From contig JBFMAK010000004.1 of assembly GCA_040755695.1 (NCBI GenBank), positions 34,112 to 98,111 of the forward strand: a stretch of 64,000 nucleotides of DNA, read 5' to 3'. Under the pieces are notes generated by a model. The model was not told where the DNA came from and did not search any database. It saw only the letters and a program-made list of their open reading frames with translations. Shown here piece after piece: positions 10,066-62,631 of this stretch; position 1 is the first letter of the stretch, and each line of letters starts with the position of its first letter. A program made the translations under genes and the position numbers. Origin of the DNA: Candidatus Iainarchaeum sp. (GTDB lineage: Archaea; Iainarchaeota; Iainarchaeia; Iainarchaeales; 1-14-0-10-31-34).

Positions 10066-10222
10066 CGCGGAGGACGAGATTCGAACTCGCGTGAGCTTTT
10101 GCTCGCCAGCTTTCCTGCCGCCATTTTTTTCTCTTTGGGGCAACTTACCACTTTCTCTTTTTTCTAAAAAGAGAAAGGGGCAGGCTCAAGGCTGGTGCGT
10201 TGGACCACTCCGCCACCTCCGC
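10066..10222 (-). tRNA. tRNA-Ser(TGA) with a 73-nt intron at 37/38 (10112-10184)
   Basis: Acceptor GCGGAGG/CCTCCGC; CCAGC-CT-TGA-G|intron|A-GCTGG; canonical BHB (CTTG/CAGG central helix, two 3-nt bulges, CTGCC/GGCGG intron helix); long variable arm. Confidence 0.95.
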
Positions 10223-14077: not shown

Positions 14078-14151
14078 TGGACCGGTCGGGATTTGAACCC
14101 GAATTCTCTCGGATGCGAACCGAGCGCATTGCCAGGTTGTGCTACCGGCCC
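14078..14151 (-). tRNA. tRNA-Ala(CGC)
   Basis: Reverse complement GGGCCGG...CTCGG-TTCGCAT-CCGAG...TCGGG-TTCAAAT-CCCGA-CCGGTCC-A. Confidence 0.95.
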
Positions 14152-14729: not shown

Positions 14730-17700
14730 ATGAGCGAAGAAGAGGAAAAGCCAAGGGCTGAAAGCGGGGAAGAAAAGCACAGGGTGGAGAAGAGCATTGT
14801 GAAGGAAGACAACGACATATTTGATGAAGTGTTTGAGGGAAAAAAGGAAAAGAGGGTGGAGCAAAGAATTGAAGAGACTGAAGAAGAGGAAAAAGAAATG
14901 AATGAAAAGGAAGGAAAGGAATTAGGAGGGGAAGAGGAATTAATTCCAATTAAAGAAAAAAAGAAGAAAAAAGAAAAGGAAAAGAAGTTGAAGGGCGTTG
15001 AAGGCGCAAGGCAGGAAATGCTCCAAGAAAAAGAGAAAGACAAACTCAAGAGGGAGATAATAAAAAAGGCATTGAAGTCTGCAACAATAGAGCCAGAGAT
15101 AATGGAACCTGAAATTGAAGAAGTAGAATTAGAGCCTGAAGAGATAAGCCCTGAAGACATTGAAGGCCTGGGAGAAAAATACCTTAAAGAAGAATTAGGA
15201 GAAAAAGAAAGCGAAGTAGAATTAATTGAGCCTGCAACAGTGCCTTTAAGGTTTCTGGAGTATGAAGCAAAAAATTCTGTTTTCATTGGAAGAAAAAAAT
15301 CAGTCTTCCAGTCCTACAAGGACGAGGCAGGCCTCTTGATTGGGAGAGTGGAAGAAGACGGAAAACATAAAGAAAAAACAGTATTATTAGACGGACTGAA
15401 CCCTCACGTAATATTTGTTTGCGGCGCGAGAGGATCGGGAAAATGCCTTACAGGCGATTCACTGATAACATTAGAAGACGGATCAATTATACCTATAAAA
15501 GAATTAGAATACAACAACAAAAGGGTCTTGGGATTAAATCATGAACTAAAAATAGTTCCATTAAAAAAAGAGGGCTTTTACAAAAGAAAAGTAGACAAAT
15601 TGTTTTCTCTCCTGTTAAGGAGTGGAAGAGAAATAAAATTGACTCCAGAACACCCTCTCCTTACAATTAATGGGTGGGTGCAGGCACAAGAACTAAAAAG
15701 AAAAGACAGTATAGCAACTCCAAGAATTCTTAATGTGTTTGGAAACAGTAAAATGAAAGAAGGGGATGTAAAGCTTTTAGCTTATTTTATAGCAGAAGGC
15801 CATCTTGGAAATGCCTTTGTATTGTTTAGTAATCAAGACAAAAAAATAATTGAAGATTTCTCTAAAAGCATAAGGGAATTTGACGAAAACCTGAGGATCG
15901 AAGTGCACAGCAAAAGCTGGTGCTATAGAATAGCACAAAAAAAGAAAGGCATTGATTTAAGAAATATTGTAAGAAATGAAAAAGGGCAGTTTACAAACAA
16001 GGGTTTTGTCATTACACAAAAAAGCTCTCTGGCTAAATGGTTTGAAAGCATTGGCTTATACGGAAAGCTTTCAAAAGAGAAATTTATTCCGGAAGAAATA
16101 TTAAAGCTTTCAAAAGAACAACTGGCCTTATTTCTTAACAGGCTTTTCAGCTGTGATGGAAGCATTCACAAGGTAAGCGGAAGCGAAAAAAACTGGCTGA
16201 TTTCTTATGCTAGTTCCTCAGAGAAACTAATAAGGCAAGTGCAACACCTTCTGCTTAGATTTGGGATAATCTCAAAGATTAAACCAAAAAAAACAAAATT
16301 TAAAGAGAAAATATTTGATTCTTTTGAATTGGTTATTTCATCTGAAAGCGTAATCAAATTCATTCAAGAAATAGGCTTTTTTGGAATAAAAGAATTAAGA
16401 CAAGAAACTGCAATAAAAAACATGCTTGAAATTAACAGAAACCCCAACATAGATACAATTCCAAAAGACATTTGGGATATTTATAGGCCAAAGAATTGGA
16501 CGGCAACAGCCAGAGCTATGGGTTACAGCCAAAAGTCATTAAAGTCATTGCATAATGCCATAAATTATGCTCCTTCAAGAGAAAAGCTATTGAAAATTGC
16601 CCAAATAGATGAAAATAAGGGAGTACAACTGATAGCAGAATCAGACATTTTTTGGGATGAGGTAGTTGAATTAAAAGAAATAGAAGGGGAAGAAGTGTAT
16701 GATATTTCTGTCCCAGAATACCACAATTTTATTGCAAACGATATAATTGTTCATAATTCTTACGTCCTTGGAGTCATAGCAGAGGAACTGGCTCTAAGAA
16801 ACAAGAACATTGGCACAATAGTAATTGACCCTGTGGGAGTATTCTGGAGCATGAGGTATCCAAACAAAGAGGAAAAAGAATTAAAGGAATTAATTGAATG
16901 GAATTTAATGCCTCAAGGCCTGGAGAACTTAAAGGTATTCGTGCCAGAAGGCATTAAAGCAGAAATTCCAAGGAATACTTACGATGCAACATTTGCAGTA
17001 CTGCCTTCAATGCTTTCAGTGGAAGACTGGTGCCTTACGTTTGGAATGGAGCGCTTTGGGCCGACAGGCCTTCTGTTAGACAAAGTACTCAAAAAAATAG
17101 AGCATGGTTATAAGACAACAGAAGCAAAATACATTAAAGCAAAGAAAGGAAACTACAGCTTGGAGGAATTGATTCAATGCCTTGAAACAGAAGAAGAATT
17201 AAATTCAAAAGAGAGAGGCTACAAGCAAGATTCCATCAGGGCTCTGGCTTCAAGGCTTGAAGCAGCAAAGAACTGGGGCATATTCTCAGAGAAAGGCACT
17301 CCATTAAGCGAATTAAGCAGGGAAAACCAGCTTACTGTTTTAGACACAAGCTTTTTAGAGGACAATGTCGGGGCATTAGTAATAGGGATTCTGGCTAGAA
17401 GAATCCTTTCAGCAAGAAAGATTTCTACAAGAAAAGAGAGCGCAAAAAAATTGAAGGCAAGCATGGACGAAATGCTTGAACTGGAGATTCCTCCAACATG
17501 GCTGTTCATAGATGAAGCCCACACTTTAATTCCCTCAGGGAATGTAAAAACGCCTGCAACAGAGGCTTTAGTGGAATACGTAAAGCAGGGAAGGAGGCCT
17601 GGCTGCAGCATTGTTTTTGCAACACAGCAGCCCAGCGCAATAGACACAAAGGTTTTATCCCAATTGGATATTCTTATTTCGCATAAACTGGTTTTTGACG

Positions 17701-18932
17701 ACGACATAAAAGCAATATACAAGAGGATTCCGACAATAATTCCATTCAAATACAAGAAAAGCAATTTCATTAGGACTCTCCCAATTGGAAAAGCATTAGT
17801 AGGAGACAGGAGAGAGGAAACAAGCAGGGCTTTCGTGCTGAGCATTAGGCCCAGGATAAGCCAGCACGAAGGAAGGGATGTAGAGGCAACATCAATTGAA
17901 TCAAAAATGAGCGAAGAACAAGTCCAAAAACTTGCAGTGGAAATGCTTATCTCAAAATTGAACAGGGAAGGAGAAATAGAATTGCCTCAAGTGAATTCGC
18001 TTATTGACACGCTGAACAGCAAGTATAAAACAAAGGTAATGCTCTCCTCAGTTCTTGACGCCCTTGAAGACAAGATGGTTTCAATTGATTCAGAGAAAAT
18101 ATTCCTGCCTTCAGCAATAAAAAAAGAGGAAGAAATAGCAGAAAGAAAGGAATTAATTGAAGAAAAAGGAATTGAAAGGGGAATTGAAGGCAAAGCAGAA
18201 GAAATGGCAGAAGCATTTCATTCGTTCCCGATCAGATTCAGTGAAGAGAGAGCCAGAAGGATTGCTGAAAGCGCAAGGAAGAAGAAAAAATTGGGTTTGA
18301 TTGGAAGGGAAGAGCAATTGAAATCTTTGAATCTGTACTACGAAAAAATATTCAAGATTCAATACAATGACTTTAACCAAAGACAGGAATTCTTTTCCAA
18401 CAACTGTTATGTGAGTTCTGAGACCGGTGAATTTCTGCATGCAACAGACAGAGAATTCATTGAATCAAAAGGATTCTCAAAAGTCATTCCCTTAGGAAGG
18501 GATGAAGCAAGCACTCTCGGAAGGCTTATTGAAAGAAAAAACCTGAAAGAATTAATTGGGCTGGGAGGCATAAGCGAAGAGAAAGCAAAGAAAGTGCTCG
18601 AAGAACTTACAAGAAAAGGATTCGTGAAAAAAGAATTAAAAGAGGGGAAGGCATCCTATTTCCTCAACTCGCAATTAGAGCTTCCGCCAAACCCAAGGCA
18701 CAAAATTGTCAATTCACTGGATGAACTGCCTTTAACAGAAATAAAAGCAGGGCAAGTCAAGAAAGAAAACTTCACTGAAAGCCAGGTAATGCAGGCCCTG
18801 CAAAACTATTGGCCTTCAATTGTAATCAAAAAGCTTTCATTAATACTGAAGCCCTACTTTGAGGCTGTCCTAGAAGAAGCAGGAAAAGAAAGAAGGCTTA
18901 AGATAGACGCAATCACGGGAAAAATAATTTAA
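14730..18932 (+). CDS. HerA/FtsK-superfamily (DUF87-like) ATPase with an intein and a long acidic N-terminus
   Basis: Walker A GARGSGK|S split by the intein, IVIDPVG, Walker B LFIDEAH, QGRRPGCSIVFATQQP; about 962 aa after splicing. Confidence 0.88.
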   Translation: MSEEEEKPRAESGEEKHRVEKSIVKEDNDIFDEVFEGKKEKRVEQRIEETEEEEKEMNEKEGKELGGEEELIPIKEKKKKKEKEKKLKGVEGARQEMLQEKEKDKLKREIIKKALKSATIEPEIMEPEIEEVELEPEEISPEDIEGLGEKYLKEELGEKESEVELIEPATVPLRFLEYEAKNSVFIGRKKSVFQSYKDEAGLLIGRVEEDGKHKEKTVLLDGLNPHVIFVCGARGSGKCLTGDSLITLEDGSIIPIKELEYNNKRVLGLNHELKIVPLKKEGFYKRKVDKLFSLLLRSGREIKLTPEHPLLTINGWVQAQELKRKDSIATPRILNVFGNSKMKEGDVKLLAYFIAEGHLGNAFVLFSNQDKKIIEDFSKSIREFDENLRIEVHSKSWCYRIAQKKKGIDLRNIVRNEKGQFTNKGFVITQKSSLAKWFESIGLYGKLSKEKFIPEEILKLSKEQLALFLNRLFSCDGSIHKVSGSEKNWLISYASSSEKLIRQVQHLLLRFGIISKIKPKKTKFKEKIFDSFELVISSESVIKFIQEIGFFGIKELRQETAIKNMLEINRNPNIDTIPKDIWDIYRPKNWTATARAMGYSQKSLKSLHNAINYAPSREKLLKIAQIDENKGVQLIAESDIFWDEVVELKEIEGEEVYDISVPEYHNFIANDIIVHNSYVLGVIAEELALRNKNIGTIVIDPVGVFWSMRYPNKEEKELKELIEWNLMPQGLENLKVFVPEGIKAEIPRNTYDATFAVLPSMLSVEDWCLTFGMERFGPTGLLLDKVLKKIEHGYKTTEAKYIKAKKGNYSLEELIQCLETEEELNSKERGYKQDSIRALASRLEAAKNWGIFSEKGTPLSELSRENQLTVLDTSFLEDNVGALVIGILARRILSARKISTRKESAKKLKASMDEMLELEIPPTWLFIDEAHTLIPSGNVKTPATEALVEYVKQGRRPGCSIVFATQQPSAIDTKVLSQLDILISHKLVFDDDIKAIYKRIPTIIPFKYKKSNFIRTLPIGKALVGDRREETSRAFVLSIRPRISQHEGRDVEATSIESKMSEEQVQKLAVEMLISKLNREGEIELPQVNSLIDTLNSKYKTKVMLSSVLDALEDKMVSIDSEKIFLPSAIKKEEEIAERKELIEEKGIERGIEGKAEEMAEAFHSFPIRFSEERARRIAESARKKKKLGLIGREEQLKSLNLYYEKIFKIQYNDFNQRQEFFSNNCYVSSETGEFLHATDREFIESKGFSKVIPLGRDEASTLGRLIERKNLKELIGLGGISEEKAKKVLEELTRKGFVKKELKEGKASYFLNSQLELPPNPRHKIVNSLDELPLTEIKAGQVKKENFTESQVMQALQNYWPSIVIKKLSLILKPYFEAVLEEAGKERRLKIDAITGKII
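15444..16757 (+). mobile_element. Intein (438 aa) with a LAGLIDADG homing endonuclease
   Basis: Starts CLTGDSLI; block B IKLTPEHPLLT; LAGLIDADG-like LLAYFIAEG and LNRLFSCDG; ends VYDISV...HNFIANDIIVHN with Ser as the +1 residue. Confidence 0.95.
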
Positions 18933-27847: not shown

Positions 27848-27971
27848 GCGGCTATAGTCTAGTGGTTAGGATTCGAGCTTCCCAAATCAGAACCTAACGG
27901 TTCCGATACCTCCCTTAAGAGGTTGTGATTGGAGTGAGCTCGCTACCCGGGTTCGAATCCCGGTAGCCGCA
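27848..27971 (+). tRNA. tRNA-Gly(CCC) with a 52-nt intron at 37/38 (27885-27936, boundary ambiguous by 1 nt)
   Basis: GCGGCTA/TAGCCGC acceptor; CGAGC-TT-CCC-A|intron|A-GCTCG; central helix TTCC/GGAG with a relaxed BHB; T arm CCGGG-TTCGAAT-CCCGG. Confidence 0.93.
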
Positions 27972-42544: not shown

Positions 42545-43211
42545 TTTTTTTACCTGCCAAATTATGGCCTATGAAACCAACAATTGCCCCACACAAAAAA
42601 GCAATTCTTGAAAAAATTTCCTGAATTTCCCTTTTAATTATGCTGGACCCTTTAATCTTTTCTGGATTAAAATCAATATTGTTGTACTTTAAATTAATTT
42701 TAACCAATAGCCTTCCGTAAGCAAAACTATTATTAACAGATTTCCAGAACCCCTTGCTTTTTCTTTCGTGCAAAACAGGCGCAATAGGCAATTCCAGACC
42801 TTTGTATCCTAAATTATTTAATCTGGCAAACAATTCAGTATCCTCAGCCAAAGGAAAATTTTCATTCATTTTATTATTTTTAAGCACAGATGAATGACAG
42901 GCAATGTTAGACCAACACCAAGGTGTCTGCCTTACCTCAATTCCCCTAATTATTGTTTTTTCGCCGTGCCTTTTTACTGCCTCAACCATTTCCTCAAGCC
43001 ATGTATTTGTCAAAGGCATTGCATCGCTTTCGGTTATGACCAAAATCTTTCCTTTTGCCCTGCTTATTGCATCATTTAATGCTTGAGGAATTCCTTTCTT
43101 CTGGGATGTCACTAATTCAAAGCCTTGGAATGACTGCTTCTTAAGCGCACTGATTAAAGGCTTCAATTCTTCTCTGCTTTTGGCTACTGCAATAACAGAA
43201 ACTTCTTTCAT
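42522..43211 (-). CDS. Glycosyltransferase family 2
   Basis: ALNDAISRAKG, ITESD and EDTELFARL. Confidence 0.8.
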   Translation of the reverse strand: MKEVSVIAVAKSREELKPLISALKKQSFQGFELVTSQKKGIPQALNDAISRAKGKILVITESDAMPLTNTWLEEMVEAVKRHGEKTIIRGIEVRQTPWCWSNIACHSSVLKNNKMNENFPLAEDTELFARLNNLGYKGLELPIAPVLHERKSKGFWKSVNNSFAYGRLLVKINLKYNNIDFNPEKIKGSSIIKREIQEIFSRIAFLCGAIVGFIGHNLAGKKNDRKTNS

Positions 43212-44617
43212 TCAGCCATCTCCCTCAAAACTTTTAATGGAACGCCAAAGACCCCCTTTAAGCCGTAATACTTGTACAGATTATATAAATGAAACAAAAT
43301 TATTTTAGGTTTTCTTGACAGCATTTTTTTGTGCCATTGCTTTACTGCATAATCTAAAAGCCCTTCAACTTCTTTGCAGCTATAAGAAGGCAGGTTAGTA
43401 ATGCTCTTGTCATTCCCTTTGATTTTCCTCCAGTCACTTACAGCAAGATAGCCTTTTCTCTTGCACCAATCATACATTTTAGTCCCTGGAAAAGGCACAC
43501 AAATAGAAAACTGCAGTGTATCAGAAGGCAAATTCAAAGCAAATTTTATTGTATTCAGATCGCTTTCCCTTGTTGAGTAAGGCAGACCCAAAACCCAGCA
43601 AACATGAGACCTCAGCTTAAATTTCCTGCAGGCTTCAACAAACCTTATAATATCTTCTCTTGTAATTGGCTTGCCGAAATGCTTCATTACATTGGGGTCA
43701 GCCGACTCAGCCCCAATAGTAACTCCAGTACAGCCAGCCTTTTTCATTAATCCAAGAAGCCCATTGCTCACCTTTGCATCAACCATGCAATTCCATTTAA
43801 GTTTCAGCTTCCGCTTGACTATTTCATTGCATATTCTCCCGGCATGCTTTTCATTTATTGCAAAACTGTCGTCATCGAAATAGAGCTCATTTGGCCGGTA
43901 TTTGCCCAACAAGTAATTCATTTCATCAACAACATCTTTTGGGTTTCGTATTCTGTAGTTTGGCTTGCAGTAATAGACTGGAACAGTGCAAAAATCGCAT
44001 CCTCTCGGGCAGCCCCTGCTTGAAACCAGAACAACATTAAAGCCGTTCAGTTTAGGGTCATTGTATTTTTGCATGGGAAGTTCTTCTCTCTCAGGCCAAG
44101 GCAATTCATCCAAGTTTTCTATGAGTTCACGGGCAACGAATTTGTGGCCTTTAGCATAAACGCCTTTGGGAATCTTCTTTAATTTTCCATTCAAGTATTT
44201 AATTAAATCCAAGATACTGTAATCGCACTCCCCTACAATAACATAATCATAGCCTTCCTTCAAATGCTCTCTTGGTGTTGGGGTCGCATGATAGCCTGAC
44301 GCAGCAGTTATAAGAGAAGGCTTTAATTTTTTAAGCATTTTAATTGTTTTCAGGTCATAATCAAAAGAGGAAGCAGTTGTCTCCCAAATTAATATGTCTG
44401 GATTGAATTCCTTAAATTTTTTAATGAACTGCCTTCTATTCAATTCTTCTGCTGTTGAATCAATAATGTGAGCGTCATAGCCGTTCTTTTTCAGGACTGC
44501 TGTAGCATAAGCAAGCCTGACAGGAAAAGGAAAATATTTCATTGAATTTTTTGAGACAGTAATGTCCCACCTGCACCTGAGCCATGGCCCAGGGGGATTT
44601 GCAAGCAATATTTTCAT
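43208..44617 (-). CDS. Cobalamin-binding radical SAM protein (class B, HpnJ-like)
   Basis: N-terminal B12-binding domain (LANPP, RLAY, VGECD); SRGCPRGCDFC; YFDDDSF; GAES. Confidence 0.9.
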   Translation of the reverse strand: MKILLANPPGPWLRCRWDITVSKNSMKYFPFPVRLAYATAVLKKNGYDAHIIDSTAEELNRRQFIKKFKEFNPDILIWETTASSFDYDLKTIKMLKKLKPSLITAASGYHATPTPREHLKEGYDYVIVGECDYSILDLIKYLNGKLKKIPKGVYAKGHKFVARELIENLDELPWPEREELPMQKYNDPKLNGFNVVLVSSRGCPRGCDFCTVPVYYCKPNYRIRNPKDVVDEMNYLLGKYRPNELYFDDDSFAINEKHAGRICNEIVKRKLKLKWNCMVDAKVSNGLLGLMKKAGCTGVTIGAESADPNVMKHFGKPITREDIIRFVEACRKFKLRSHVCWVLGLPYSTRESDLNTIKFALNLPSDTLQFSICVPFPGTKMYDWCKRKGYLAVSDWRKIKGNDKSITNLPSYSCKEVEGLLDYAVKQWHKKMLSRKPKIILFHLYNLYKYYGLKGVFGVPLKVLREMAE

Positions 44618-45942
44618 CTTACCGCCAATTTAATATTTTTATAAAATCTTTTAAAATAAATATTTAAATATAACAAAAACATTCTTGGCTTTGATAACAT
44701 CTTAAAGTATTTGATGTAATTTTTATGTTTGGTTGAACTCCATGCCAAAAATATTTTCTTTTTATAGAAAGCCAAATCCTCTTTGGTAAGGTTTTCTAAT
44801 CTTATTGGGTAATCATTCATGCAATAATGGTAATCAGAAAGCCTTTTTATATTTAATATTGCTTTTTCTAGGCAATATTTTTCTAGATCTGTGCCTATTA
44901 ATGGAGTCATTATGCTTACCTGTATTCCATCAGGATGTATTTCTTTAATGAGTCTAACTGTCATTTCAAGATCTTCTTTTGTTTCTGTTGGAGTTCCAAT
45001 TATGATGAATGCATGACATAGAATTTCTGCTTTGTGTGTCATTTTAAATGCTTCTTTTATTTGTTTTACTGTTATGCCTTTTCTCATAAAATTAAGTATT
45101 TTCTGAGAGCCTGATTCAACGCCGTAATTTATGAATGTGCATCCAGCATCTTTCATCATTTCAAGTTTTTCCTTGTCAATAAGATTTACTCTTGTGCTAC
45201 ACTTCCAGTTTATTTTTAATGGTTTCACTGATTCACAAAATTTTTTTAGCCAATCTAAGTTCCATGTAAAAGTGTCATCAAGGAAATAAAAGATAAAATT
45301 GCTGCCATAATTGTTTATTATTTGTTTTATTTCTGCTACAACGTTTTCAGGGCTTCTCAGCTTAACTTTATCACCGAATAATTTTCTTTGAGTTGGCTGG
45401 CAAAAGATGCAATTGTATGGGCAACCCCTTGACATCATTATCTCGATTTCATGGTTCATCCTTAGATATTTGCCGTAATCAATTAATTTTCTGTTAGGAA
45501 AAGGGATTACATCTAATTTTTCAACATGCTCTCCGTAAACCAATCTTTCCTTTATTTTTCCTTTGATTATATTTAAAAAAATCTTTTCGCCCTCGCCAAC
45601 TACTAAAAAGTCAACATGTTTATTCTTAAGCATATTAGCTGTGTCAACAGTAGCATGAGCTCCACCGACTATAACTTTAGCATGAGGGCATATCTTTTTG
45701 GCTATTTCAATTGCCCTTAAACCATTTTTTGCTATGGGGGTTTGTATTGAAAAACCTATGAATTTAGGACTCACTTGCTTTAATCTTTGCTTGTATTCTT
45801 TCCAACTTGTAAACGTTAAATCAATTATTTCAGATTTTATTTTATTGGCTGCTAAATAAGATGCAATATATTGAATCCCTAACGGAGCTGAACTTCCCCC
45901 TGCCAACAATTCTGGGGTTCGAGGATATACTAAAGTTATCAT
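44614..45942 (-). CDS. Cobalamin-binding radical SAM protein (class B)
   Basis: PLGIQYIASY, GGAHAT, VGEGE, SRGCPYNCIFC, FLDDTFT and GVESGSQ. Confidence 0.92.
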   Translation of the reverse strand: MITLVYPRTPELLAGGSSAPLGIQYIASYLAANKIKSEIIDLTFTSWKEYKQRLKQVSPKFIGFSIQTPIAKNGLRAIEIAKKICPHAKVIVGGAHATVDTANMLKNKHVDFLVVGEGEKIFLNIIKGKIKERLVYGEHVEKLDVIPFPNRKLIDYGKYLRMNHEIEIMMSRGCPYNCIFCQPTQRKLFGDKVKLRSPENVVAEIKQIINNYGSNFIFYFLDDTFTWNLDWLKKFCESVKPLKINWKCSTRVNLIDKEKLEMMKDAGCTFINYGVESGSQKILNFMRKGITVKQIKEAFKMTHKAEILCHAFIIIGTPTETKEDLEMTVRLIKEIHPDGIQVSIMTPLIGTDLEKYCLEKAILNIKRLSDYHYCMNDYPIRLENLTKEDLAFYKKKIFLAWSSTKHKNYIKYFKMLSKPRMFLLYLNIYFKRFYKNIKLAVR

Positions 45943-46700
45943 TTTTTCACGCCCAAACACTGTATCATCATAAGATTATAGAAGCCCCTTAAAAACTCTG
46001 GCAATTTATATTTCTTTTTAAGTTTATTAAAACCTTCAATTTTAATATAATCAAATTTTTCTAATTGAATATTATGTTTTTCAAATAAATTTTTGACTTC
46101 ACTGAAGCCCGTAAACCAATGGTAATCCACACAGGCTTTCCCGAGCAATTTTTCGTCTATGAATTTCCTAAGAAACCTTGGAAACAGAATAGTGAAAGGC
46201 AGGCCGTCATGTGGATTCCAGAGAATAAACAATGGAAAATACCTTGCTTCTGTTGTTACAAATATGCTGCCTCCTTTTTTTAAAACCCTTGACATTTCGC
46301 TCGCAAAGGACTCATGGTCAGGAACATGTTCTAATGTGTCCGTGCAGATAATTAAATCAAAAAATTCGCTGGAATAAGGAATTCTCCTCCCATTCCATAA
46401 TTTCAGCTCCTGCGGTTTCAGTTTGAGGTCTTTGAATCTCTGCCTTGATATCTCCAAAAAATATTTGTTGACATCTATTCCATACACTTTTGCCCCCCCT
46501 TCAGCAAATGCACAGGCAATTCCGCCTGTTCCAGTGCTTGCATCCAAAACCTTTTTGCCTTTCACTTTCAATGAAAGATGCTTTATTATTTTTCTGCCTA
46601 AATCAAACCTGCTCAAAGCATACCTTACATCAACTTCGGGCTGGGTCATAGGCTGTATTTTGTCATTCTTCCATAAAACCAATTTATCCTGCCATTTCAT
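45939..46700 (-). CDS. Class I SAM-dependent methyltransferase
   Basis: VLDASTGTGG, FDLIICTDTLEHVPD and RVLKKGG. Confidence 0.9.
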   Translation of the reverse strand: MKWQDKLVLWKNDKIQPMTQPEVDVRYALSRFDLGRKIIKHLSLKVKGKKVLDASTGTGGIACAFAEGGAKVYGIDVNKYFLEISRQRFKDLKLKPQELKLWNGRRIPYSSEFFDLIICTDTLEHVPDHESFASEMSRVLKKGGSIFVTTEARYFPLFILWNPHDGLPFTILFPRFLRKFIDEKLLGKACVDYHWFTGFSEVKNLFEKHNIQLEKFDYIKIEGFNKLKKKYKLPEFLRGFYNLMMIQCLGVKK

Positions 46701-47776: not shown

Positions 47777-48739
47777 ATGAAAAGCTATTCGGGCAAAAAA
47801 ATGGTGGTTTCATTTATAATTCCGGCCCATAACGAGGAAAAAATGATAGGCTTTGCCCTAGAGCCCTTAATAAAATTGAAAGCAGACTGCCCTTTCATTG
47901 AAATATTGGTTGGGCTTGACGGCTGCACTGACAGAACAAAAGAAGTGGCTGGAGAATTTAAAGAGATTAAATTATTTGAGTTCAAAGAAAGAAAAGGAAA
48001 GCATAAAGTGTTGAACGAATTAGTCAAAAAAGCGCGCGGTGAAATATGCGTTATAAATGATGCTGACTGGATTTTTGTTGCAAGAAAAAATGATTTAAAA
48101 AAAATGATTGAATGCTTTGAAGACAAAAGCATTGGGGGTTTAGGAGACCATTACGCTTTAACCTTTGCCCCAGAAATACTCAAAAAAAGCAATTCAATCC
48201 TGTTTGCAGGAGAAGCATGGAACCTTCTTTTCATCACAGAATACAAAAACAAATTCTTCACCAAAGAAATTAACGGAGAAAGGTTTGCAGATTTTGGAAA
48301 AGCCAGCTATCCCTTCTTTGTTCATTTTTTCAGGAAAAACTCTGTTGGAGAAGCAACAACGCTTGCAGATGACGCAGAGAGATTCCTGCAAATTGAAAGA
48401 AAAGGATTGAAAGTGAAACTGCTTCCTTTCGGCTCAAAGCCTTATTTCATTCCAGCATACAATTCAATTGACTTGAAAGGAATACTGAAACAGAGAAGCA
48501 GAGGCTTTATTGCGCAGAAACAGATAAGAGAGAAATATGGGTCAAATAATTTTACTGCAAAAACAAGCCTTTCGCTATTCTTTTACGCCCTCAAAAATCT
48601 TCCAAGAGTAAAAAAACCAAAACATGTTTTTGGGGTTCTCTTATGGTGGGTTCTTTCAGGGATTTCATACATTAATTATGCAGTAAGGAAAAGAAATCTT
48701 TCAACTGAAGAAGGCTGGCAACTAGGATTAAGCCGTTAG
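47777..48739 (+). CDS. Glycosyltransferase family 2
   Basis: SFIIPAHNEE, LDGCTDRT, GKHKVLN and INDAD. Confidence 0.87.
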   Translation: MKSYSGKKMVVSFIIPAHNEEKMIGFALEPLIKLKADCPFIEILVGLDGCTDRTKEVAGEFKEIKLFEFKERKGKHKVLNELVKKARGEICVINDADWIFVARKNDLKKMIECFEDKSIGGLGDHYALTFAPEILKKSNSILFAGEAWNLLFITEYKNKFFTKEINGERFADFGKASYPFFVHFFRKNSVGEATTLADDAERFLQIERKGLKVKLLPFGSKPYFIPAYNSIDLKGILKQRSRGFIAQKQIREKYGSNNFTAKTSLSLFFYALKNLPRVKKPKHVFGVLLWWVLSGISYINYAVRKRNLSTEEGWQLGLSR

Positions 48740-49810
48740 AACTTTAAAGTAGAGTTTTGGATTGAAAATTATGTTCCTGACCTGAAAAAGGCAGTGCGTG
48801 CAATAGCACCCTTCCCCTTCAATCATTTTTCTCTGTCTATCTGCTTTTTTTGAAAACCACACAGAAGAAAAAGCATAATTTGCTTTCCTTAGACTTCCAA
48901 TGCTTGGGAGGAGTTCGCATAAAGAAAGGCTGCCGTCTGAATTAATTACCCCTGCAACCTTTCCTGCAAGGCATGGAATCACCTGCCTTTCCTGCCTTAA
49001 TGTCTCAAGCTGTATTTTATTTAGGAAAGAATTAATCTTGAATGCCATGAGAGGATAGAATGATTTCATGAAAAAACTGTTCTTGTAATACCTTTTGTCC
49101 CTTGAAGAATAGGCTTTCAGGTTTTCCCTGTATTCACCAAAAAGCTTTTCCATCTGCTCTGCTGTAGGGGGCTTTAATTCCGGGTTTTTTGGGTTGCCTC
49201 TAATTATCTCAATTGTATGAAAGTCAACATCCATTTCATCCCTTACAAAATCCATTAAAGCGCCCATTTCACCGTAGTTTTGGTTGCATACAACAGTGCA
49301 CACCATTGTGGAAAGCTGGGGGAATTCTCTTTTCAGTTTTCTAAGTTTTTTTTCTGTTTTCAGAACCTTCTGAAAATTACCCTTTACTCCTCGAATCGAG
49401 TAATGCGTTTTCTCCAAGCCGTCAAGAGAGAGCAGAATTGTAAGATTTATTTCACTGCATTCTGAGAGAATTTTTTTTGTTGTCTTGTATATTTTTTCAG
49501 GAAGAAGGCAGTTTGTTGGAATTGCAATGTTTTCCGCCTTATTGTTTTCAAAAAAAACCCTGCAGATTTCAGGCAAATCATTTCTCAGAAAAGGCTCTCC
49601 TCCACTCAAATGAAGCCATGCGAGTTCATGCATGTTTTCTGAAATTCTTTTTATTTCTTCAAGCGACAAATCATCTTTTCTGTTCAAATTTTTCCAGTTA
49701 AAGCAGGTTTTGCACCTGCTGTTGCATTTGCTTGTAACAAAGAAAATCATGTAAGGGGGCAATTTGTTCTTTCGGGGATTTAAAAGCCATTTGAATGATT
49801 TTCCAATCAT
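48728..49810 (-). CDS. Radical SAM protein with a SPASM/twitch domain
   Basis: VTSKCNSRCKTC, LSGGEPFLR, SLDG; C-terminal PCLAG...LCE...CYCTHC. Confidence 0.9.
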   Translation of the reverse strand: MIGKSFKWLLNPRKNKLPPYMIFFVTSKCNSRCKTCFNWKNLNRKDDLSLEEIKRISENMHELAWLHLSGGEPFLRNDLPEICRVFFENNKAENIAIPTNCLLPEKIYKTTKKILSECSEINLTILLSLDGLEKTHYSIRGVKGNFQKVLKTEKKLRKLKREFPQLSTMVCTVVCNQNYGEMGALMDFVRDEMDVDFHTIEIIRGNPKNPELKPPTAEQMEKLFGEYRENLKAYSSRDKRYYKNSFFMKSFYPLMAFKINSFLNKIQLETLRQERQVIPCLAGKVAGVINSDGSLSLCELLPSIGSLRKANYAFSSVWFSKKADRQRKMIEGEGCYCTHCLFQVRNIIFNPKLYFKVLTA

Positions 49811-50709: not shown

Positions 50710-50994
50710 ACATTAATATTGACTGCTTAAAATAAAAAATAAGAGGGCGGAAAAGGAGAGAAAAAATCTCCTTGCAATTTCCTTTACAAAAATTTTTTCC
50801 GCCCTTGTTGTTGCATGCCAACCACTCTCTTTTATTGAATTGGGTTGAAACCTTCCTGAAGGACAAAAAAAATGCAAAATATAAATAATAGTTTTTTGGT
50901 ACAAAAAACGTAAAATTGGCTGAAAACAACTGGGGGTTAGAAATTCAAACCAAATATTTAAATATATCCAAGGACACATTATTAATCCTAAAAA

Positions 50995-51040
50995 AAACAA
51001 CATATAGTGTTTTATTTATTACAAACACAACATATAGTGA
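50995..51040 (+). promoter_or_regulatory. Tandem NrdR boxes
   Basis: AAACAACATATAGTGT (50995-51010) and ACACAACATATAGTGA (51025-51040), 30 bp apart, fitting the NrdR-box consensus acaCwAtATaTwGtg; downstream of an AT-rich TATA-like stretch. Confidence 0.85.
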
Positions 51041-51079
51041 GGTTAATTTGTTTTTTAATGAAATTGAGGGGTGAATAGC

Positions 51080-53182
51080 ATGAAGTGTCCTTTCTGCAAT
51101 AACACTGAGACAAGAGTAATAGATAAGAGAATTAATGACGAAGAAAAGAGCAATAGGAGGAGAAGGGAATGCCTAAAGTGCGGCAGGCGCTTTACAACCT
51201 ACGAGAGAATTGAATCCCTGCCCAAAATCGAATTCGTAGAAAAAAGGGATGGAAGAATTGTTGCCTTTGACAAGGATAAAATCACTGAAGCCATATTCAA
51301 GGCAGCACAGTCTGTTGGAGGAACAGACAAGAGCATTGCAGAAGGGCTTTCAGACAAGGTCATAGAATTATTAGAACAAAAATTTGGCTCAAACAAGACA
51401 CCAAAAGTTGAAGACGTCCAGGACGCAGTAGAAAAAGTATTGATAGAAGAAGGCCACACAAAAACAGCAAAAGCATTCATTTTATACAGAGAGAAAAGAA
51501 AAGAAATGAGGGACCTAAAATCATATCTTACAAAAGCAAACGAAATAATTAACAGCTATCTGAATATTAATGACTGGCGCGTAAAAGAGAACGCCAACGC
51601 AGACTTCTCTATTTCTGCATTTCAGGCGCACATTTCAGGTGAAATAATTGCAGAATACGCACTAAACAATATTTACCCAAAAGAAATAGCTGAAGCGCAC
51701 AGAAAAGCAGACTTCCACATTCACGATTTGAGTGTTGGAACCTTCACTGCTTACTGCGCTGGCTGGAGCTTAATGCAATTGTTAATGGAAGGATTTAATG
51801 GAGTGAGAGGAAGGGTTTCAGCAAAGCCTGCAAGGCACTTCAATGCAGCCTTAGGCCAGTTAGTCAACTTTTTTGGTACTCTTCAAAATGAATGGGCTGG
51901 CGCTCAAGCAGTATCATCTTTTGACACCTATTTTGCACCTTTAGTGAGAGAAGACAAACTGAATTACAAGCAGGTAAAACAGAGCATACAAGAATTCGTT
52001 TATGGAATCAATCAGACAACGCGCTGGGGCAACCAGGTTCCATTCACTAATATTACCTTGGATTGGACTGTGCCTGAAGACATGAAAGACCATAAAGCAA
52101 TAGTTGGGGGGGAACTGCAGAAAGACACCTATTCAGATTACCAGGAAGAAATGGACTGGATCAATAAGGCATTCATTGAGGTAATGAGCGCAGGAGACAT
52201 GAATGCAAGAATCTTCACCTTCCCTATTCCAACATACAATATTACAAGAGACTTTGACTGGGGCACAGAGAATGCTAACCTTCTATTTGAAATGACAGCA
52301 AAGTATGGAATCCCATACTTCCAGAACTTTATTAACAGTTCCTTGAAGCCTCAGGATGTGCGCAGTATGTGTTGCAGATTACAGTTAAGGTTAGATGAAT
52401 TGAGGGCAAAGACTGGAGGCTTGTTCGGCTCAGGAGAACAGACAGGAAGCATTGGGGTAGTAACAATAAACATGCCTAAGATTGGCTTTCTTTCAAAAAG
52501 CAGGGAGGAATTCTTTGAAAGGCTCGGAAAATTATTGGTGCTGGCAAAGGATTCACTTGAAATAAAAAGAAAGGAAGCAGAAAAAAACATGCAGCAAGGC
52601 CTGCTTCCTTACACTAAAAGATATTTAGGGCACTTGAACAACCATTTCTCCACGATTGGATTAGTGGGAATGAATGAGGCAGGCATTAATTTCCTGCACC
52701 AGAGCATTGCAGAAAAAGAGGGAAAGCAGTTAGCCTTGGATGTATTAGACTTCTTCAGAGAGAAATTAACTGAATTCCAGGCAGAAACAGGCCACATCTA
52801 TAACTTGGAGGCAACGCCAGCAGAAGGAACGTCTTACAGGCTTGCAAGAATTGACAAGAGGAATTACCCTGAAATAATTACAGCAGGGAATGGAACGCCT
52901 TTCTATACAAATTCAACGCACCTGCCAGTGGACTACACTGACGACATATTTGAGGCATTAAAGCACCAGGACGAACTTCAAACAAAATACACTGGGGGAA
53001 CAGTATTGCACGGCTTCATTGGAGAGAGGATTGACTCAAACCAGTCATGCAAGAAGCTGGTGAAGAAGATTGCAGAGAATTTCAGGCTGCCTTACTTCAC
53101 TGTAACCCCAACATTCAGCATCTGCCCAGTGCACGGCTACATCAAGGGAGAGCACAAGAACTGTCCCACGGCAGCAAAATAA
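51080..53182 (+). CDS. nrdD: Class III ribonucleotide reductase core fused to an N-terminal NrdR zinc ribbon and ATP-cone; lacks the C-terminal glycyl-radical loop
   Basis: MKCPFC...RRRRECLKCGRRFTTYER (NrdR); VEKRDG...AKAFILYR ATP-cone; HIHDL, SMCCRL, EATPAEG and YTGGTVLH; GAGGGGTGA RBS. Confidence 0.93.
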   Translation: MKCPFCNNTETRVIDKRINDEEKSNRRRRECLKCGRRFTTYERIESLPKIEFVEKRDGRIVAFDKDKITEAIFKAAQSVGGTDKSIAEGLSDKVIELLEQKFGSNKTPKVEDVQDAVEKVLIEEGHTKTAKAFILYREKRKEMRDLKSYLTKANEIINSYLNINDWRVKENANADFSISAFQAHISGEIIAEYALNNIYPKEIAEAHRKADFHIHDLSVGTFTAYCAGWSLMQLLMEGFNGVRGRVSAKPARHFNAALGQLVNFFGTLQNEWAGAQAVSSFDTYFAPLVREDKLNYKQVKQSIQEFVYGINQTTRWGNQVPFTNITLDWTVPEDMKDHKAIVGGELQKDTYSDYQEEMDWINKAFIEVMSAGDMNARIFTFPIPTYNITRDFDWGTENANLLFEMTAKYGIPYFQNFINSSLKPQDVRSMCCRLQLRLDELRAKTGGLFGSGEQTGSIGVVTINMPKIGFLSKSREEFFERLGKLLVLAKDSLEIKRKEAEKNMQQGLLPYTKRYLGHLNNHFSTIGLVGMNEAGINFLHQSIAEKEGKQLALDVLDFFREKLTEFQAETGHIYNLEATPAEGTSYRLARIDKRNYPEIITAGNGTPFYTNSTHLPVDYTDDIFEALKHQDELQTKYTGGTVLHGFIGERIDSNQSCKKLVKKIAENFRLPYFTVTPTFSICPVHGYIKGEHKNCPTAAK

Positions 53183-53205
53183 ATAATTGAATGAGGTGAC
53201 ATAAA

Positions 53206-53352
53206 ATGGAAGAAAAGGAATGCGGAAAAGAATGCGAGGTATACAGCAGGGTAGTAGGCTATTTCAGGCCAGTACAGTCATGGAATGAAGGAAAACAAGA
53301 GGAATTCAAGCACAGGAAAACATATGAAATAAAAGAAAAAGAATTAAAGTAA
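53206..53352 (+). CDS. Stand-alone glycyl-radical domain of NrdD (48 aa)
   Basis: Manual translation MEEKECGKECEVYSRVVGYFRPVQSWNEGKQEEFKHRKTYEIKEKELK; own GAGGTGA RBS at 53193-53199; not in the ORF track. Confidence 0.9.
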   Translation: MEEKECGKECEVYSRVVGYFRPVQSWNEGKQEEFKHRKTYEIKEKELK

Positions 53353-53372: not shown

Positions 53373-54077
53373 ATGGAATTCAAGGGAATACAGAAGACTA
53401 CTTTAATTGATTTTCAGGGGCACATTGCCTCTACTTTATTTCTTTCGAAATGCAATTTCTCTTGCCCTTACTGCCAGAACCCCTTGCTTGTAAGGGATGA
53501 TAAAAGCCTTGTTTCAATCCCTGAAAAGGAAATGATTGAACTGCTTGACGAAAGAAAGGAATTCATTGAAGGCATCTGTATTACAGGCGGAGAGCCAACG
53601 CTCTACGGCAAAGAATTAAAGGAATTCGTTAAGAGAATAAAAAGGGAATTGAAGCTGAAAGTCAAGCTGGACACTAACGGAAACAATCCCTTGATATTAA
53701 AAGAATTAATTCAAGAAAAATTACTGGACTACATTGCAATGGACATCAAAGGGCCTTTAGATAAATACGATGAAATTGCGAGAGTAAAGGTAGACAAGAA
53801 GGCAGTGCAGGAGAGCATTGACCTGATAATGAATTCAGGTCTTGAGTACGAGTTCAGGACAACCATTGTACCGGAATTTTTTTCAAGAGAAGATGCAATC
53901 TCAATAGGAAAATGGCTTATGGGAGCAAAAAAATACTTTTTGCAGCAATTCAATAATCAAACAGAATTGCTTGACCCCGAATTCAAGGAAAAAAAGCCTT
54001 ATCCTCCAGAGAAATTAAAGGAATTAGCACAATTAATGAAGCCTTTCTTTGGGGAATGCGGTGTCAGGGGAATCTGA
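53373..54077 (+). CDS. nrdG: Anaerobic RNR activating enzyme
   Basis: KCNFSCPYCQNP, ITGGEPT, KLDTNG, AMDIK and EFRTT. Confidence 0.93.
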   Translation: MEFKGIQKTTLIDFQGHIASTLFLSKCNFSCPYCQNPLLVRDDKSLVSIPEKEMIELLDERKEFIEGICITGGEPTLYGKELKEFVKRIKRELKLKVKLDTNGNNPLILKELIQEKLLDYIAMDIKGPLDKYDEIARVKVDKKAVQESIDLIMNSGLEYEFRTTIVPEFFSREDAISIGKWLMGAKKYFLQQFNNQTELLDPEFKEKKPYPPEKLKELAQLMKPFFGECGVRGI

Positions 54078-62291: not shown

Positions 62292-62631
62292 GGCGGGTAG
62301 GACAAGGCCAGCTGACGGTTCCTTAAGTGGAGCTGAGGAAAGTCCGTCCATCCAAACTTTTTGAAAAAAGTTTGATCAAAACAAACTTTTAAGAAAAGTT
62401 TGATCAAAAAACACTTGAAAAGGTGGCTCTCGGAACAGAAACGAAACCATTCAAGGATTACAATGAATGAAAAAAGAGGTTCTTTGAATATAGTTTCAAG
62501 CTTTGCTTGAAATTTTTCAAAGCTTTGCTTTGAAATAGGATGAAACGGCTGAGAGCAGATGCAAGCCTTCAATGGCGCTCAGGTGAATGCTGGATAAAAA
62601 CAAAAGACGGCTTACTCTGTCCTGCTCCGCC
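62292..62631 (+). ncRNA. rnpB: RNase P RNA
   Basis: P1 GGGTAGGACA/TGTCCTGCTC; P2 CCAGC/GCTGG; conserved GAGGAAAGTCC, ACAGAAA, GATGAAACG, GAATGC and ACAAAAGACGGCTTA; P4 AAGTCCG/CGGCTT. Confidence 0.9.
62353..62409 (+). repeat. Tandem family D hairpins inside the RNase P RNA
   Basis: CAAACTTTT-TGAA-AAAAGTTTG-ATCAAAA followed by CAAACTTTT-AAG-AAAAGTTTG-ATCAAAA. Confidence 0.88.

Follow-up and report, generated by a model that had tools for sequence, protein, structure and literature searches.

Does a ribonucleotide reductase (RNR) that carries the DNA-binding module of a repressor also control its own gene? The question is raised by the class III RNR operon of a DPANN archaeon, whose NrdD chain opens with an NrdR-type zinc ribbon. 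The operon lies within the 64-kb stretch of DNA that was analysed (the window), and its features are collected in the table.

Table. Features of the nrdD locus, in positions of the window
Feature	Position	Strand	Description or evidence
TATA-like element TTTAAATA, putative archaeal promoter	50957..50964	+	read from sequence
Candidate NrdR box 1, AAACAACATATAGTGT	50995..51010	+	14/16 consensus positions
Candidate NrdR box 2, ACACAACATATAGTGA	51025..51040	+	14/16 consensus positions
Shine-Dalgarno-like GAGGGGTGA of fusion gene	51066..51074	+	read from sequence
Fusion ORF	51080-53182	+	700 aa; single uninterrupted frame; stop TAA at 53180
NrdR-type zinc ribbon, aa 1-45 (CPFC ... RRRRECLKC ... RFTTYE)	51080..51214	+	Pfam PF22811
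RNR-type ATP-cone, aa 52-142	51233..51505	+	Pfam PF03477
NrdD large chain, aa 170-700	51587..53182	+	Pfam PF13597; finger loop SMCCRL; ends after CPVHGY..GEHKNCP
Shine-Dalgarno GAGGTGA of glycyl-radical ORF	53193..53199	+	read from sequence
Glycyl-radical ORF (CGKECEVYSRVVGYFRPVQSWNEGKQEEF), 48 aa, other frame	53206..53352	+	NRDD profile 526-562, E 4e-12
nrdG, radical-SAM activase	53373..54077	+	Pfam Radical_SAM + Fer4_12

The fusion gene starts at ATG 51080, 3' of its Shine-Dalgarno-like element. Pfam assigns three domains to its product: Zn_ribbon_NrdR (aa 1-42, E 4.9e-17), ATP-cone (aa 52-142, E 9.8e-23), and NRDD (aa 170-697, E 1.3e-171). The first-pass annotation had read an NrdR zinc ribbon into residues 1 to about 45, and the ribbon profile bears this out with full coverage (positions 1-42 of 42). 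The ribbon matches the NrdR structure 7p37 in the PDB (E 6e-13) and contains two CxxC motifs, C3/C6 and C31/C34. In alignment, it has all of the DNA-contact residues of S. coelicolor NrdR (R12, D15, R17, R26-29, and R37), the protein in which the residues for DNA contact and base specificity were defined (PMC9110341). C3, C6, C31, C34, D15, R17, R26-29, and R37 are invariant across 12 sequences that share the ribbon-cone-NrdD architecture (direct fusions); most of these sequences have R or K at position 12.

An RNR-type cone joined in frame to the ribbon had also been claimed, and this reading holds. The cone ends in AKAFILYR and lacks the NrdR motif VAYxRFASVY. In an AF2 model of aa 1-170 (pLDDT 87), it superposes best on the cones of LbNrdB, PaNrdA, and S. 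thermophilus NrdD, with an rmsd of 1.5-1.9 Å; a Foldseek search with the same model returned NrdR structures as top matches, aligned across both domains. Judged by its sequence and modelled fold, the cone is of the RNR type and groups with RNR cones. The NrdR family criteria applied here were PF22811 plus PF03477, COG1327, and a small protein of 140-220 aa. Because the cone lacks VAYxRFASVY and groups with those of RNRs, and because the protein is 700 aa long, the fusion protein is not a strict NrdR orthologue, although by sequence it carries the NrdR DNA-binding module.

The catalytic part agrees with the first-pass annotation in its barrel (PF13597) but not in its completeness. The large chain covers positions 1-526 of the 562 in the NRDD profile and is therefore an incomplete NrdD, and the RVVGY glycyl-radical motif is encoded by a separate 48-aa ORF with its own Shine-Dalgarno sequence and ATG. 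Because the glycyl-radical segment is a separate ORF, the functional unit reaches past 53182. The finger loop of the large chain contains MCCR, one of the cysteine motif classes (MCCR and MGCR) described for NrdD in PMC9669993. Downstream, the nrdG ORF opens at GTG 53361, and ATG 53373 gives a 234-aa protein, as called in the relative L170.

L170 was assembled separately and was reached through the 94%-identical L11 protein. Its fusion protein is 92% identical to that of the window and is also called as 700 aa, and the locus agrees with the window in the fusion, in the split, and in gene order through nrdG. The glycyl-radical chains of the two loci are identical at 45 of 48 residues, and the Shine-Dalgarno sequence of this ORF is kept in L170 although the flanking spacer differs. 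The large chain has a common end point in the window, L170, L006-L008, L012-L017, L086, and L100; detachment of the glycyl-radical domain from NrdD recurs in many relatives.

Two NrdR boxes 30 bp apart had been reported upstream of the gene, and scoring against the consensus ACACWATATATWGTGT recovered the pair. At the six positions that PMC13584703 lists as critical (C4, A6, A8, T9, T11, and G13), both boxes agree with the consensus. Relative to the ATG, the boxes are at -85 and -55, with their centres 30 bp apart. They are the sole sites with at most two mismatches in the 64-kb window (0.02 expected; two or more sites in 0 of 100 shuffles) and form its sole tandem pair (0.026 expected). All 12 critical positions of the two boxes are kept in L170, with about 56% identity expected under neutrality, and the 5' UTR from 51041 to 51079 is nearly identical. 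Bacterial NrdRs have a spacer optimum of 15-17 bp and lose repression at 13 bp or less, which places the 14-bp spacer of the window at the short edge of their range.

Transcription would start near 50987, just 5' of box 1. An AT-rich TATA-like element is also present at the aligned position in L170, and in relatives such an element lies 8-25 nt upstream of box 1. A TATA box within the spacer was considered and rejected: the candidate TTTATTTATTA of the window is not kept in L170 (TTTGATTGCTG), so the TATA-like element was placed upstream at 50957. A scan for sigma-70 promoters and terminators, which is unsuited to an archaeon, gave counts no higher than those in shuffled sequence, and an Rfam search of the intergenic region gave no match at the gathering score.

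The first-pass annotation proposed a search for the domain architecture and for co-occurring boxes, and both were found together well beyond this locus. At least about ten clusters (50% identity) with the ribbon-cone-NrdD architecture occur among 1.84 billion representative proteins, and they come from different samples; these counts are lower bounds, since the protein search used a word index that is biased toward short fragments and does not amount to a census. Every catalytically intact fusion gene for which upstream DNA is available is immediately preceded by tandem boxes at a distance of 29-33 bp from each other. These genes include direct fusions (the window, L001, L005, L086, and L090) and complete NrdR-NrdD fusions (L002/L003, L004, and L100), with a cutoff of at least 12/16 positions per box and one exception, the second box of L100 (11/16). 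The upstream pairs are the only tandem pairs in the box-tested fusion loci (0.006 expected in 26 kb). Across the direct fusions, the ribbon is the most conserved domain: 13 of 14 ribbons are 59-73% identical to that of the window, and that of the remaining protein, P0235, is 47% identical and has lost the RRRR motif. The NrdD core is 48-50% identical to that of the window in clade I direct fusions; among direct fusions, 10 to 16 residues link the ribbon to the cone.

Relatives without the fusion have nrdR directly upstream of nrdD, and L002, a complete fusion, is closely related to the direct fusion L086 and syntenic with it. On these sequences, the likely route led from an nrdR-nrdD operon to a complete NrdR-NrdD fusion and then to loss of the NrdR cone. 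The first-pass annotation was unaware of the complete fusions, which explain the origin of the architecture. Direct fusions fall into two NrdD clades separated with 100% bootstrap support, and by this phylogeny the direct fusion has two or more origins within NrdD.

Two derivatives appear to be pseudoenzymes. P0230 and P0232 have an intact ribbon and cone, followed by an NrdD body without the MCCR motif. The P0230 locus, the only one of the two that was fetched, has no adjoining glycyl-radical ORF or nrdG, and loci of this type have a single weak box upstream. Retention of ribbon and cone without the catalytic motif points to a regulatory role of the ribbon-cone unit that is separate from catalysis.

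The ribbon on the enzyme and the two boxes before its gene suggest that the enzyme probably represses its own transcription, and it is plausible that this repression would be set by dATP and ATP through the single cone. In the proposed mechanism, the ATP-cone of the enzyme itself follows the ribbon, in the place that the NrdR cone would take, and three components would make up the enzyme: the 700-aa chain, the separate 48-aa chain that bears the glycyl radical, and the activase NrdG. When the cone binds ATP, the enzyme would be active and the zinc ribbons of the dimer would be apart or hidden. A rise in dATP would cause the cones to pair and the dimers to associate, as they do in Prevotella copri NrdD, which dATP moves toward tetramers whose four cones share one face (PMC11226230). 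Ribbons from two dimers could then pair as in the NrdR tetramer, in which cone pairs combine with ribbon pairs that bridge two boxes (PMC9110341). The paired ribbons would clamp both boxes, at or just downstream of the presumed transcription start, and so keep nrdD, the glycyl-radical ORF, and nrdG from being transcribed. A single nucleotide sensor would thereby switch off both catalysis and enzyme synthesis. The sequences show the architecture itself, selection on it, its recurrence, and the tandem boxes that accompany it; DNA binding by the fusion protein, the repressive direction of its effect, and its nucleotide dependence are the parts of this model that we infer.

Several points bear against the model. 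The spacer is short by the standard of bacterial NrdRs, P0230-type loci have a single weak box, and a stand-alone NrdR elsewhere in the genome, of which 64 kb is in view, could occupy the boxes. A tetramer of roughly 320 kDa would have to fit 46 bp of DNA, and the archaeal promoter elements and the transcription start come from inference. The cone of NrdR is placed in a class of its own, with ATP and dATP bound at once (PMC9110341); the fusion cone, being of the RNR type, is unlike it, so the oligomer switch of NrdR, a cycle of dodecamer, octamer, and tetramer, may not carry over.

The least credible of the other readings is that a frameshift or misassembly artificially connected separate nrdR and nrdD genes, or that the zinc ribbon is a decaying remnant. 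Related genomes do have separate, overlapping nrdR and nrdD genes, and errors are possible in metagenome assemblies. However, the same 700-aa frame is present in the independently assembled L170 at 12.6% nucleotide divergence, the architecture recurs in clusters from different samples, and the NrdR cone (about 110 aa) is wholly absent, which a frameshift could not produce. Between the window and L170, the zinc ribbon is the most constrained domain, with a dN/dS of 0.018 compared with 0.054 for the NrdD core (dS about 0.67-0.7), which rules out decay. The reading is thus refuted, and the fusion is genuine and under selection; the first-pass annotation had likewise read the domains as joined in frame. 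A distinctly unlikely reading is that a stand-alone NrdR elsewhere in the genome serves the boxes and that the fused ribbon has another job, such as pairing with other ribbons to strengthen dATP-induced oligomerisation and, through it, allosteric inhibition. In its favour, NrdR occurs in 22% of archaeal genomes (PMC13584703), zinc ribbons are the main oligomerisation interface in NrdR (PMC9110341), close non-fused relatives have a separate nrdR, and the inspection covers 64 kb of the genome. Yet the nrdR of those relatives occupies exactly the place of the fused ribbon, which indicates that the fusion replaces nrdR rather than adding to it. Oligomerisation alone would need neither the base readers D15 and R17 nor the RRRR phosphate clamp, all of which are invariant, and tblastn found no second nrdR or ATP-cone in the 64-kb window. 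A second copy of a regulator is not expected in genomes as small as those of DPANN archaea.

Simple negative self-regulation, in which the fusion binds the boxes independently of the nucleotide state of its cone, the amount of enzyme would stay constant, and allostery is a separate matter, is an unlikely alternative that draws on the difference between RNR-type and NrdR cones, on the poor conservation of the tetramer-interface residues of P. copri NrdD (PMC11226230), and on the variable ribbon-cone linker. It sits poorly with three observations: the ribbon is at the NrdR-homologous ribbon-cone junction in every direct fusion, the NrdR cone was lost in at least two lineages that kept the RNR cone, and the cone is still highly conserved in the pseudoenzymes P0230 and P0232. 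The best explanation as a whole, which we consider reasonably probable, is that NrdD took over the NrdR ribbon and that one sensor would serve both catalysis and synthesis. A more specific form of this explanation is offered tentatively, as a possibility that may well fail in some of its parts: the holoenzyme would be its own repressor, with a dATP-bound RNR cone that both stops catalysis and assembles a dimer of dimers whose four ribbons clamp the boxes; this design would have evolved at least twice in DPANN by way of complete fusions, and some NrdD bodies would have decayed to a dead scaffold, giving a new NrdR-like regulator.

Comparison with known systems places the fusion between two families. 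Like NrdR from S. coelicolor (7P37/7P3F) and E. coli (9FVR), it has a ribbon with two CxxC motifs, RRRR, D15, R17, and R37, followed directly by an ATP-cone, and its nrd genes are preceded by candidate operators in the form of two 16-bp boxes in tandem, spaced by about three turns of the helix. Unlike NrdR, its cone is of the RNR activity-site type and leads into a 530-aa NrdD core; the host is an archaeon rather than a bacterium, and the spacer is 14 bp instead of the usual 15-16 bp. Like the cone-bearing class III RNRs of Prevotella copri (8P23/8P28) and S. thermophilus (9D3X), it has an ATP-cone before the NrdD barrel, a double-cysteine MCCR finger loop, and an adjoining nrdG, and by analogy with these enzymes dATP inhibition through its cone would be expected. 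It differs from them in the additional N-terminal ribbon of DNA-binding type and in the glycyl-radical domain, which is a separate 48-aa polypeptide.

Trigger enzymes such as PutA, BirA, and NadR combine a catalytic and a DNA-binding domain in one chain and repress their own operon, with a pathway metabolite as the switch. The fusion resembles them in architecture only: it has catalytic and DNA-binding-type domains and a candidate operator at its own promoter. It belongs to an unrelated fold and family, its DNA-binding domain comes from the dedicated repressor of the pathway, and its putative sensor is an existing allosteric domain. An RNR chain spread over two genes also occurs in the split class II NrdJa/NrdJb of Pseudomonas aeruginosa (cited in PMC9669993); the second chain of that enzyme carries the C-terminal zinc-finger part, whereas here the enzyme is class III and the detached piece bears the glycyl radical. 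Literature searches found no publication on an NrdR-RNR fusion or on a split NrdD, and nothing that linked the term "trigger enzyme" to RNR; the design of a ribbon-NrdD fusion appears to be unstudied. No class I or II RNR with an NrdR ribbon was present among the proteins and loci inspected, and a class II fusion that the first-pass annotation had mentioned for Thermoplasmatales was not found in searches that were not designed to exclude one.

The split chain raises the separate question of whether a radical peptide damaged by oxygen can be exchanged for a new one, in the way that GrcA acts for pyruvate formate-lyase; the detached peptide may serve as an exchangeable radical-bearing subunit and so add an extra layer. 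NrdR and the activity site of RNR use one kind of nucleotide sensor, the ATP-cone, the former for transcription and the latter for catalysis, and the field has yet to settle how far one cone class can stand in for the other. With an NrdR DNA-binding module on an RNR-type cone, the fusion is a natural test of whether an RNR cone can drive an NrdR-style oligomer switch, and the complete fusions, direct fusions, and pseudoenzymes form a ready evolutionary series for structural work. The predicted binding of DNA by the fusion would place NrdR-type regulation at archaeal promoters. If the model is true, RNR would join the few enzymes known to control their own gene.

The fusion protein of the window is a single chain in which an NrdR zinc ribbon is followed by a ribonucleotide reductase (RNR)-type ATP-cone and the core of the class III enzyme NrdD. 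Its three Pfam domains bear out the fusion and the coordinates described in the first-pass annotation. L170, a close relative in an independent assembly (Logan assembly SRR9617926), carries the same uninterrupted 700-aa gene followed by the 48-aa glycyl-radical ORF and nrdG; thus, the fusion is genuine and not an error that joined two genes. The two fusion proteins are 92% identical. L170 additionally contains a 434-aa gene with no Pfam match between nrdG and the L11 gene, which is absent from the window.

Between the window and L170 fusion genes, overall dS is approximately 0.67 (Nei-Gojobori). The dN/dS ratio is 0.018 for the zinc ribbon (11.5 synonymous and 1.5 non-synonymous changes), 0.054 for the NrdD core, 0.135 for the linker and cone, and 0.30 for the cone-core linker, making the ribbon the most constrained region of the protein. 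Direct fusions are those in which the ribbon is joined straight to the RNR cone. In an alignment of 12 of them, the four zinc cysteines, D15, K16, R17, N25, R26-R29, R37, and the FTTYE motif are invariant. When S. coelicolor NrdR is bound to DNA, as seen by cryo-EM, R12, R26-29, and R37 hold the phosphates, and the bases are read by D15 and R17 (PMC9110341); all of these DNA-contact residues are present in the window protein. The ribbon is 59-73% identical to that of the window in 13 of 14 other direct fusions; the remaining one, P0235, is 47% identical and has lost the RRRR motif. The same comparison gives 48-50% identity to the window for the NrdD cores of the other clade.

An AF2 model of residues 1-170 has a mean pLDDT of 87. 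Its top PDB hits are NrdR structures, and these alignments span both domains (E 2e-11 to 3e-9). For the cone by itself, the closest superpositions are with the L. blandensis NrdB, P. aeruginosa NrdA, and S. thermophilus NrdD cones (rmsd 1.5-1.9 Å, 33-38% identity). The predicted N-terminal module therefore has the layout of NrdR but an RNR cone.

Coordinates of features in the window and in related loci (box positions with a minus sign are relative to the start codon)
Feature	Position	Strand	Description
Hairpin	50743-50812	+	Nested, GGGCGGAAAA...TTTTCCGCCC around GGAGAG...TCTCC
TATA-like element	50957-50964	+	TTTAAATA, matches archaeal TATA consensus
NrdR box 1	50995-51010	+	AAACAACATATAGTGT, 14/16 to consensus ACACWATATATWGTGT
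NrdR box 2	51025-51040	+	ACACAACATATAGTGA, 14/16 to consensus ACACWATATATWGTGT
5' UTR, box 2 to start codon	51041-51079		GGTTAATTTGTTTTTTAATGAAATTGAGGGG..., contains SD
Fusion ORF	51080 (ATG) to TAA 53180-53182	+	700 aa, read from sequence
Zn_ribbon_NrdR	aa 1-42		Pfam E 4.9e-17, full profile covered
ATP-cone	aa 52-142		Pfam E 9.8e-23
NRDD	aa 170-697		Pfam E 1.3e-171
Small-ORF start	23 nt past large ORF	+	SD GAGGTGA and ATG, read from sequence
Glycyl-radical ORF	53206-53352	+	48 aa, different frame, starts MEEKECGKECEVYSRVVGYFRPVQSWNEGKQEEF..., Pfam profile positions 526-562 (glycyl-radical loop)
nrdG	53373-54077	+	Radical-SAM activase gene (Pfam)
Radical-SAM cluster	43208-45960, 48728-49810		Two B12-binding proteins, one SPASM-type
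HerA-like helicase	14730-18932		1400 aa, LAGLIDADG intein
RNase P RNA	62296-62626		Archaeal
tRNAs	10066-10222, 14078-14151, 27848-27971
Boxes, window	-85, -55		Direct fusion
Boxes, L001	-95, -63		Direct fusion; weaker pair farther upstream
Boxes, L005			Direct fusion; two box pairs
Boxes, L086	-66, -35		Direct fusion
Boxes, L090	-92, -60		Direct fusion
Boxes, L002/L003	-55, -22		Complete NrdR fusion
Boxes, L004	-64, -32		Complete NrdR fusion
Boxes, L100	-143, -111		Complete NrdR fusion; second box 11/16, under the cutoff of at least 12/16
Complete fusion, L100	3521-5950
P0231, L086	5001-9332		1443 aa, two inteins
CxxC-extended chains	L006 8470-8910, L007 2295-2792, L008 8003-8467		Small chain
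Additional gene, L170	10490-11794		434 aa

The two NrdR boxes that had been claimed upstream of the gene are present and unique: no other site in the window has at most two mismatches (0.02 expected; two sites in 0 of 100 dinucleotide shuffles), and the window has no other tandem pair (0.026 expected), defined as two boxes of at least 12/16 spaced 29-33 bp apart. Mutagenesis has identified six critical positions (C4, A6, A8, T9, T11, and G13; PMC13584703), and both boxes have all of them. Comparison with L170 shows divergence and a 21-nt indel in the central part of the intergenic region; the 12 critical box positions are all unchanged, as is the 14-bp length of the spacer, and neutral identity at this dS would be approximately 56%. 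A tandem pair lies directly upstream in all catalytically intact fusion loci with upstream DNA available. No pairs other than these occur within the loci L001-L005 and L086, with 0.006 expected by chance in the 26 kb of L001, L002, L004, L005, and L086 pooled.

Judging from the TATA-like element, transcription would start near 50987, placing the boxes at about +8 and +38. This position, at or just past the putative start site, fits repression. In relatives, a TATA-like element lies 8-25 nt upstream of box 1. An AT-rich stretch within the box spacer was rejected as the TATA box because it is not conserved in L170. Approximately 35 nt of the 5' UTR are identical to L170, exceeding the conservation of the boxes. 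The hairpin in the region that separates nrdD from the divergent glycosyltransferase gene (MFE -31.9 kcal/mol, z-score -3.0) is nearly fully kept in L170, and the flanking intergenic DNA has diverged. It matches no Rfam family at gathering score and could be a small RNA or regulatory element. The radical-SAM cluster upstream of the nrd operon adjoins several family 2 glycosyltransferases.

The catalytic chain is part of the fusion as first annotated, but the glycyl-radical part, which that annotation overlooked, sits on a separate ORF. The large ORF reaches positions 1-526 of the 562 in the NRDD profile and ends after ...CPVHGYIKGEHKNCPTAAK. In L170, the large chain stops at the same point, the spacer has diverged and contains an SD, and 45 of 48 residues of the small ORF are identical. 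The same stop point and restart with its own SD and ATG occur in Nanoarchaeota MAGs (L006-L008), Spirochaetes (L012-L017), L086, L100, and many metagenome loci; further split loci include at least L096, L102-L107, L112, and L146. Across loci, the large chain stops past CPxHGY..GEH..CP, and the ORF with the glycyl-radical loop (EVYSRVVGY...) ranges from 48 to about 200 aa. Since L170 and archaeal, spirochaete, and metagenome loci break at the same place, the split is genuine and no error, and it is conserved in archaea and bacteria. In many relatives, including L006-L008 and L012-L017, the small chain extends into a glutaredoxin- or thioredoxin-like CxxC domain (Pfam Glutaredoxin borderline, 22.7 bits vs a 22.9 cutoff), which the window ORF does not have. 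This domain may be a built-in reductant of these MCCR-type enzymes. No published account of a split class III RNR was found in the literature searched; NrdJa/NrdJb is a known split enzyme of class II (PMC9669993).

An exhaustive HMMER search with residues 1-170 against 1.84 billion representative proteins returned approximately 10 clusters in which an RNR-type cone follows the ribbon directly, and at least some further direct fusions came from a word-index protein search and a metagenome scan. Among NrdDs that are not fused, the nearest (Nanoarchaeota L006 and L008, Spirochaetes L012-L018, and many metagenome loci) are encoded immediately downstream of a stand-alone nrdR (VAYxRFASVY), and the two genes often overlap. 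Complete fusions contain the whole NrdR in frame, in the order ribbon, NrdR cone, RNR cone, NrdD, and so have two cones per chain; they are P0001 (Aenigmatarchaeota, locus L002), P0004 (locus L004), P0007 (Nanoarchaeia), P0236, and L100. Direct fusions lack the NrdR cone; their ribbon and RNR cone meet at the homologous junction, separated by 10-16 linker residues (10 in NrdR). The direct fusion L086 and the complete fusion L002 are syntenic (glycosyltransferase, hypothetical gene, tRNA synthetase, fusion) and 65-81% identical in their common parts; therefore, the direct fusion there corresponds to a complete fusion minus approximately 110 residues. Complete fusions are likely the intermediate between nrdR-nrdD operons and the window architecture.

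In a neighbor-joining tree of the cone and NrdD N-terminus, one clade holds all complete fusions and the direct fusions P0003, P0008, P0009, and P0231, and is split at 100% bootstrap from the group of the window, P0002, and non-fused enzymes. Because direct fusions fall in both groups, the tree indicates that the direct fusion arose at least twice or that the N-terminal module was swapped between lineages.

P0230 and P0232 have a well-conserved ribbon and cone on an NrdD-like body without WRVKEN, HIHD, or the MCCR finger loop. The P0230 loci (L087-L089) have neither a glycyl-radical ORF nor nrdG nearby; the adjacent genes encode an amino-acid kinase and a hydrolase, and just one weak box lies upstream. 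These proteins are probably catalytically dead NrdD scaffolds retained as regulators. The ribbon and RNR-type cone also precede C-terminal regions unrelated to these: one with no family assignment in P0233, and part of a xylose-isomerase-like TIM barrel in P0325. Both may reflect further domain shuffling or chimeric assemblies. Inteins are common in the window genome and in relatives: P0008 (L005) has one at an SRWG|C site, which is shared with P0231 (L086).

The host is a DPANN archaeon, given the RNase P RNA, the tRNAs (two matches spanning 124 and 157 nt probably contain introns), the archaeal L11 and Spt5 genes, and the best named relatives of L11, which are Diapherotrites, "Ca. Iainarchaeum", and Micrarchaeota MAGs. 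Databases label such fusions "NrdR, partial" or "anaerobic RNR". Full-text searches of the NrdR and RNR literature gave no description of such a ribbon-RNR fusion, nor was the class II RNR fusion mentioned in the first-pass annotation found.

That annotation also proposed that one cone governs catalysis and promoter binding. On loading with dATP, P. copri NrdD becomes inactive and moves toward tetramers with paired cones, all four of them on a single face (PMC11226230). DNA-binding NrdR is a tetramer of cone pairs and ribbon pairs whose two DNA-binding sites, 80 Å apart, span two boxes (PMC9110341). Uniting the two kinds of pairing, the fusion architecture allows a combined switch: dATP would pair the cones of two NrdD dimers, and the four ribbons thus presented would sit on the two boxes as two pairs. 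Against this mechanism count the window cone, an RNR cone of a different class from that of NrdR (PMC9110341); the 14-bp spacer, at the short edge of the range in bacterial NrdRs; and the coverage of only 64 kb of the genome, in which no second nrdR occurs, with NrdR reported in 22% of archaeal genomes (PMC13584703). The dATP-driven regulation through ribbon and boxes is a plausible hypothesis, and sequence comparison lends good support to a fusion architecture that is real, selected, and recurrent.
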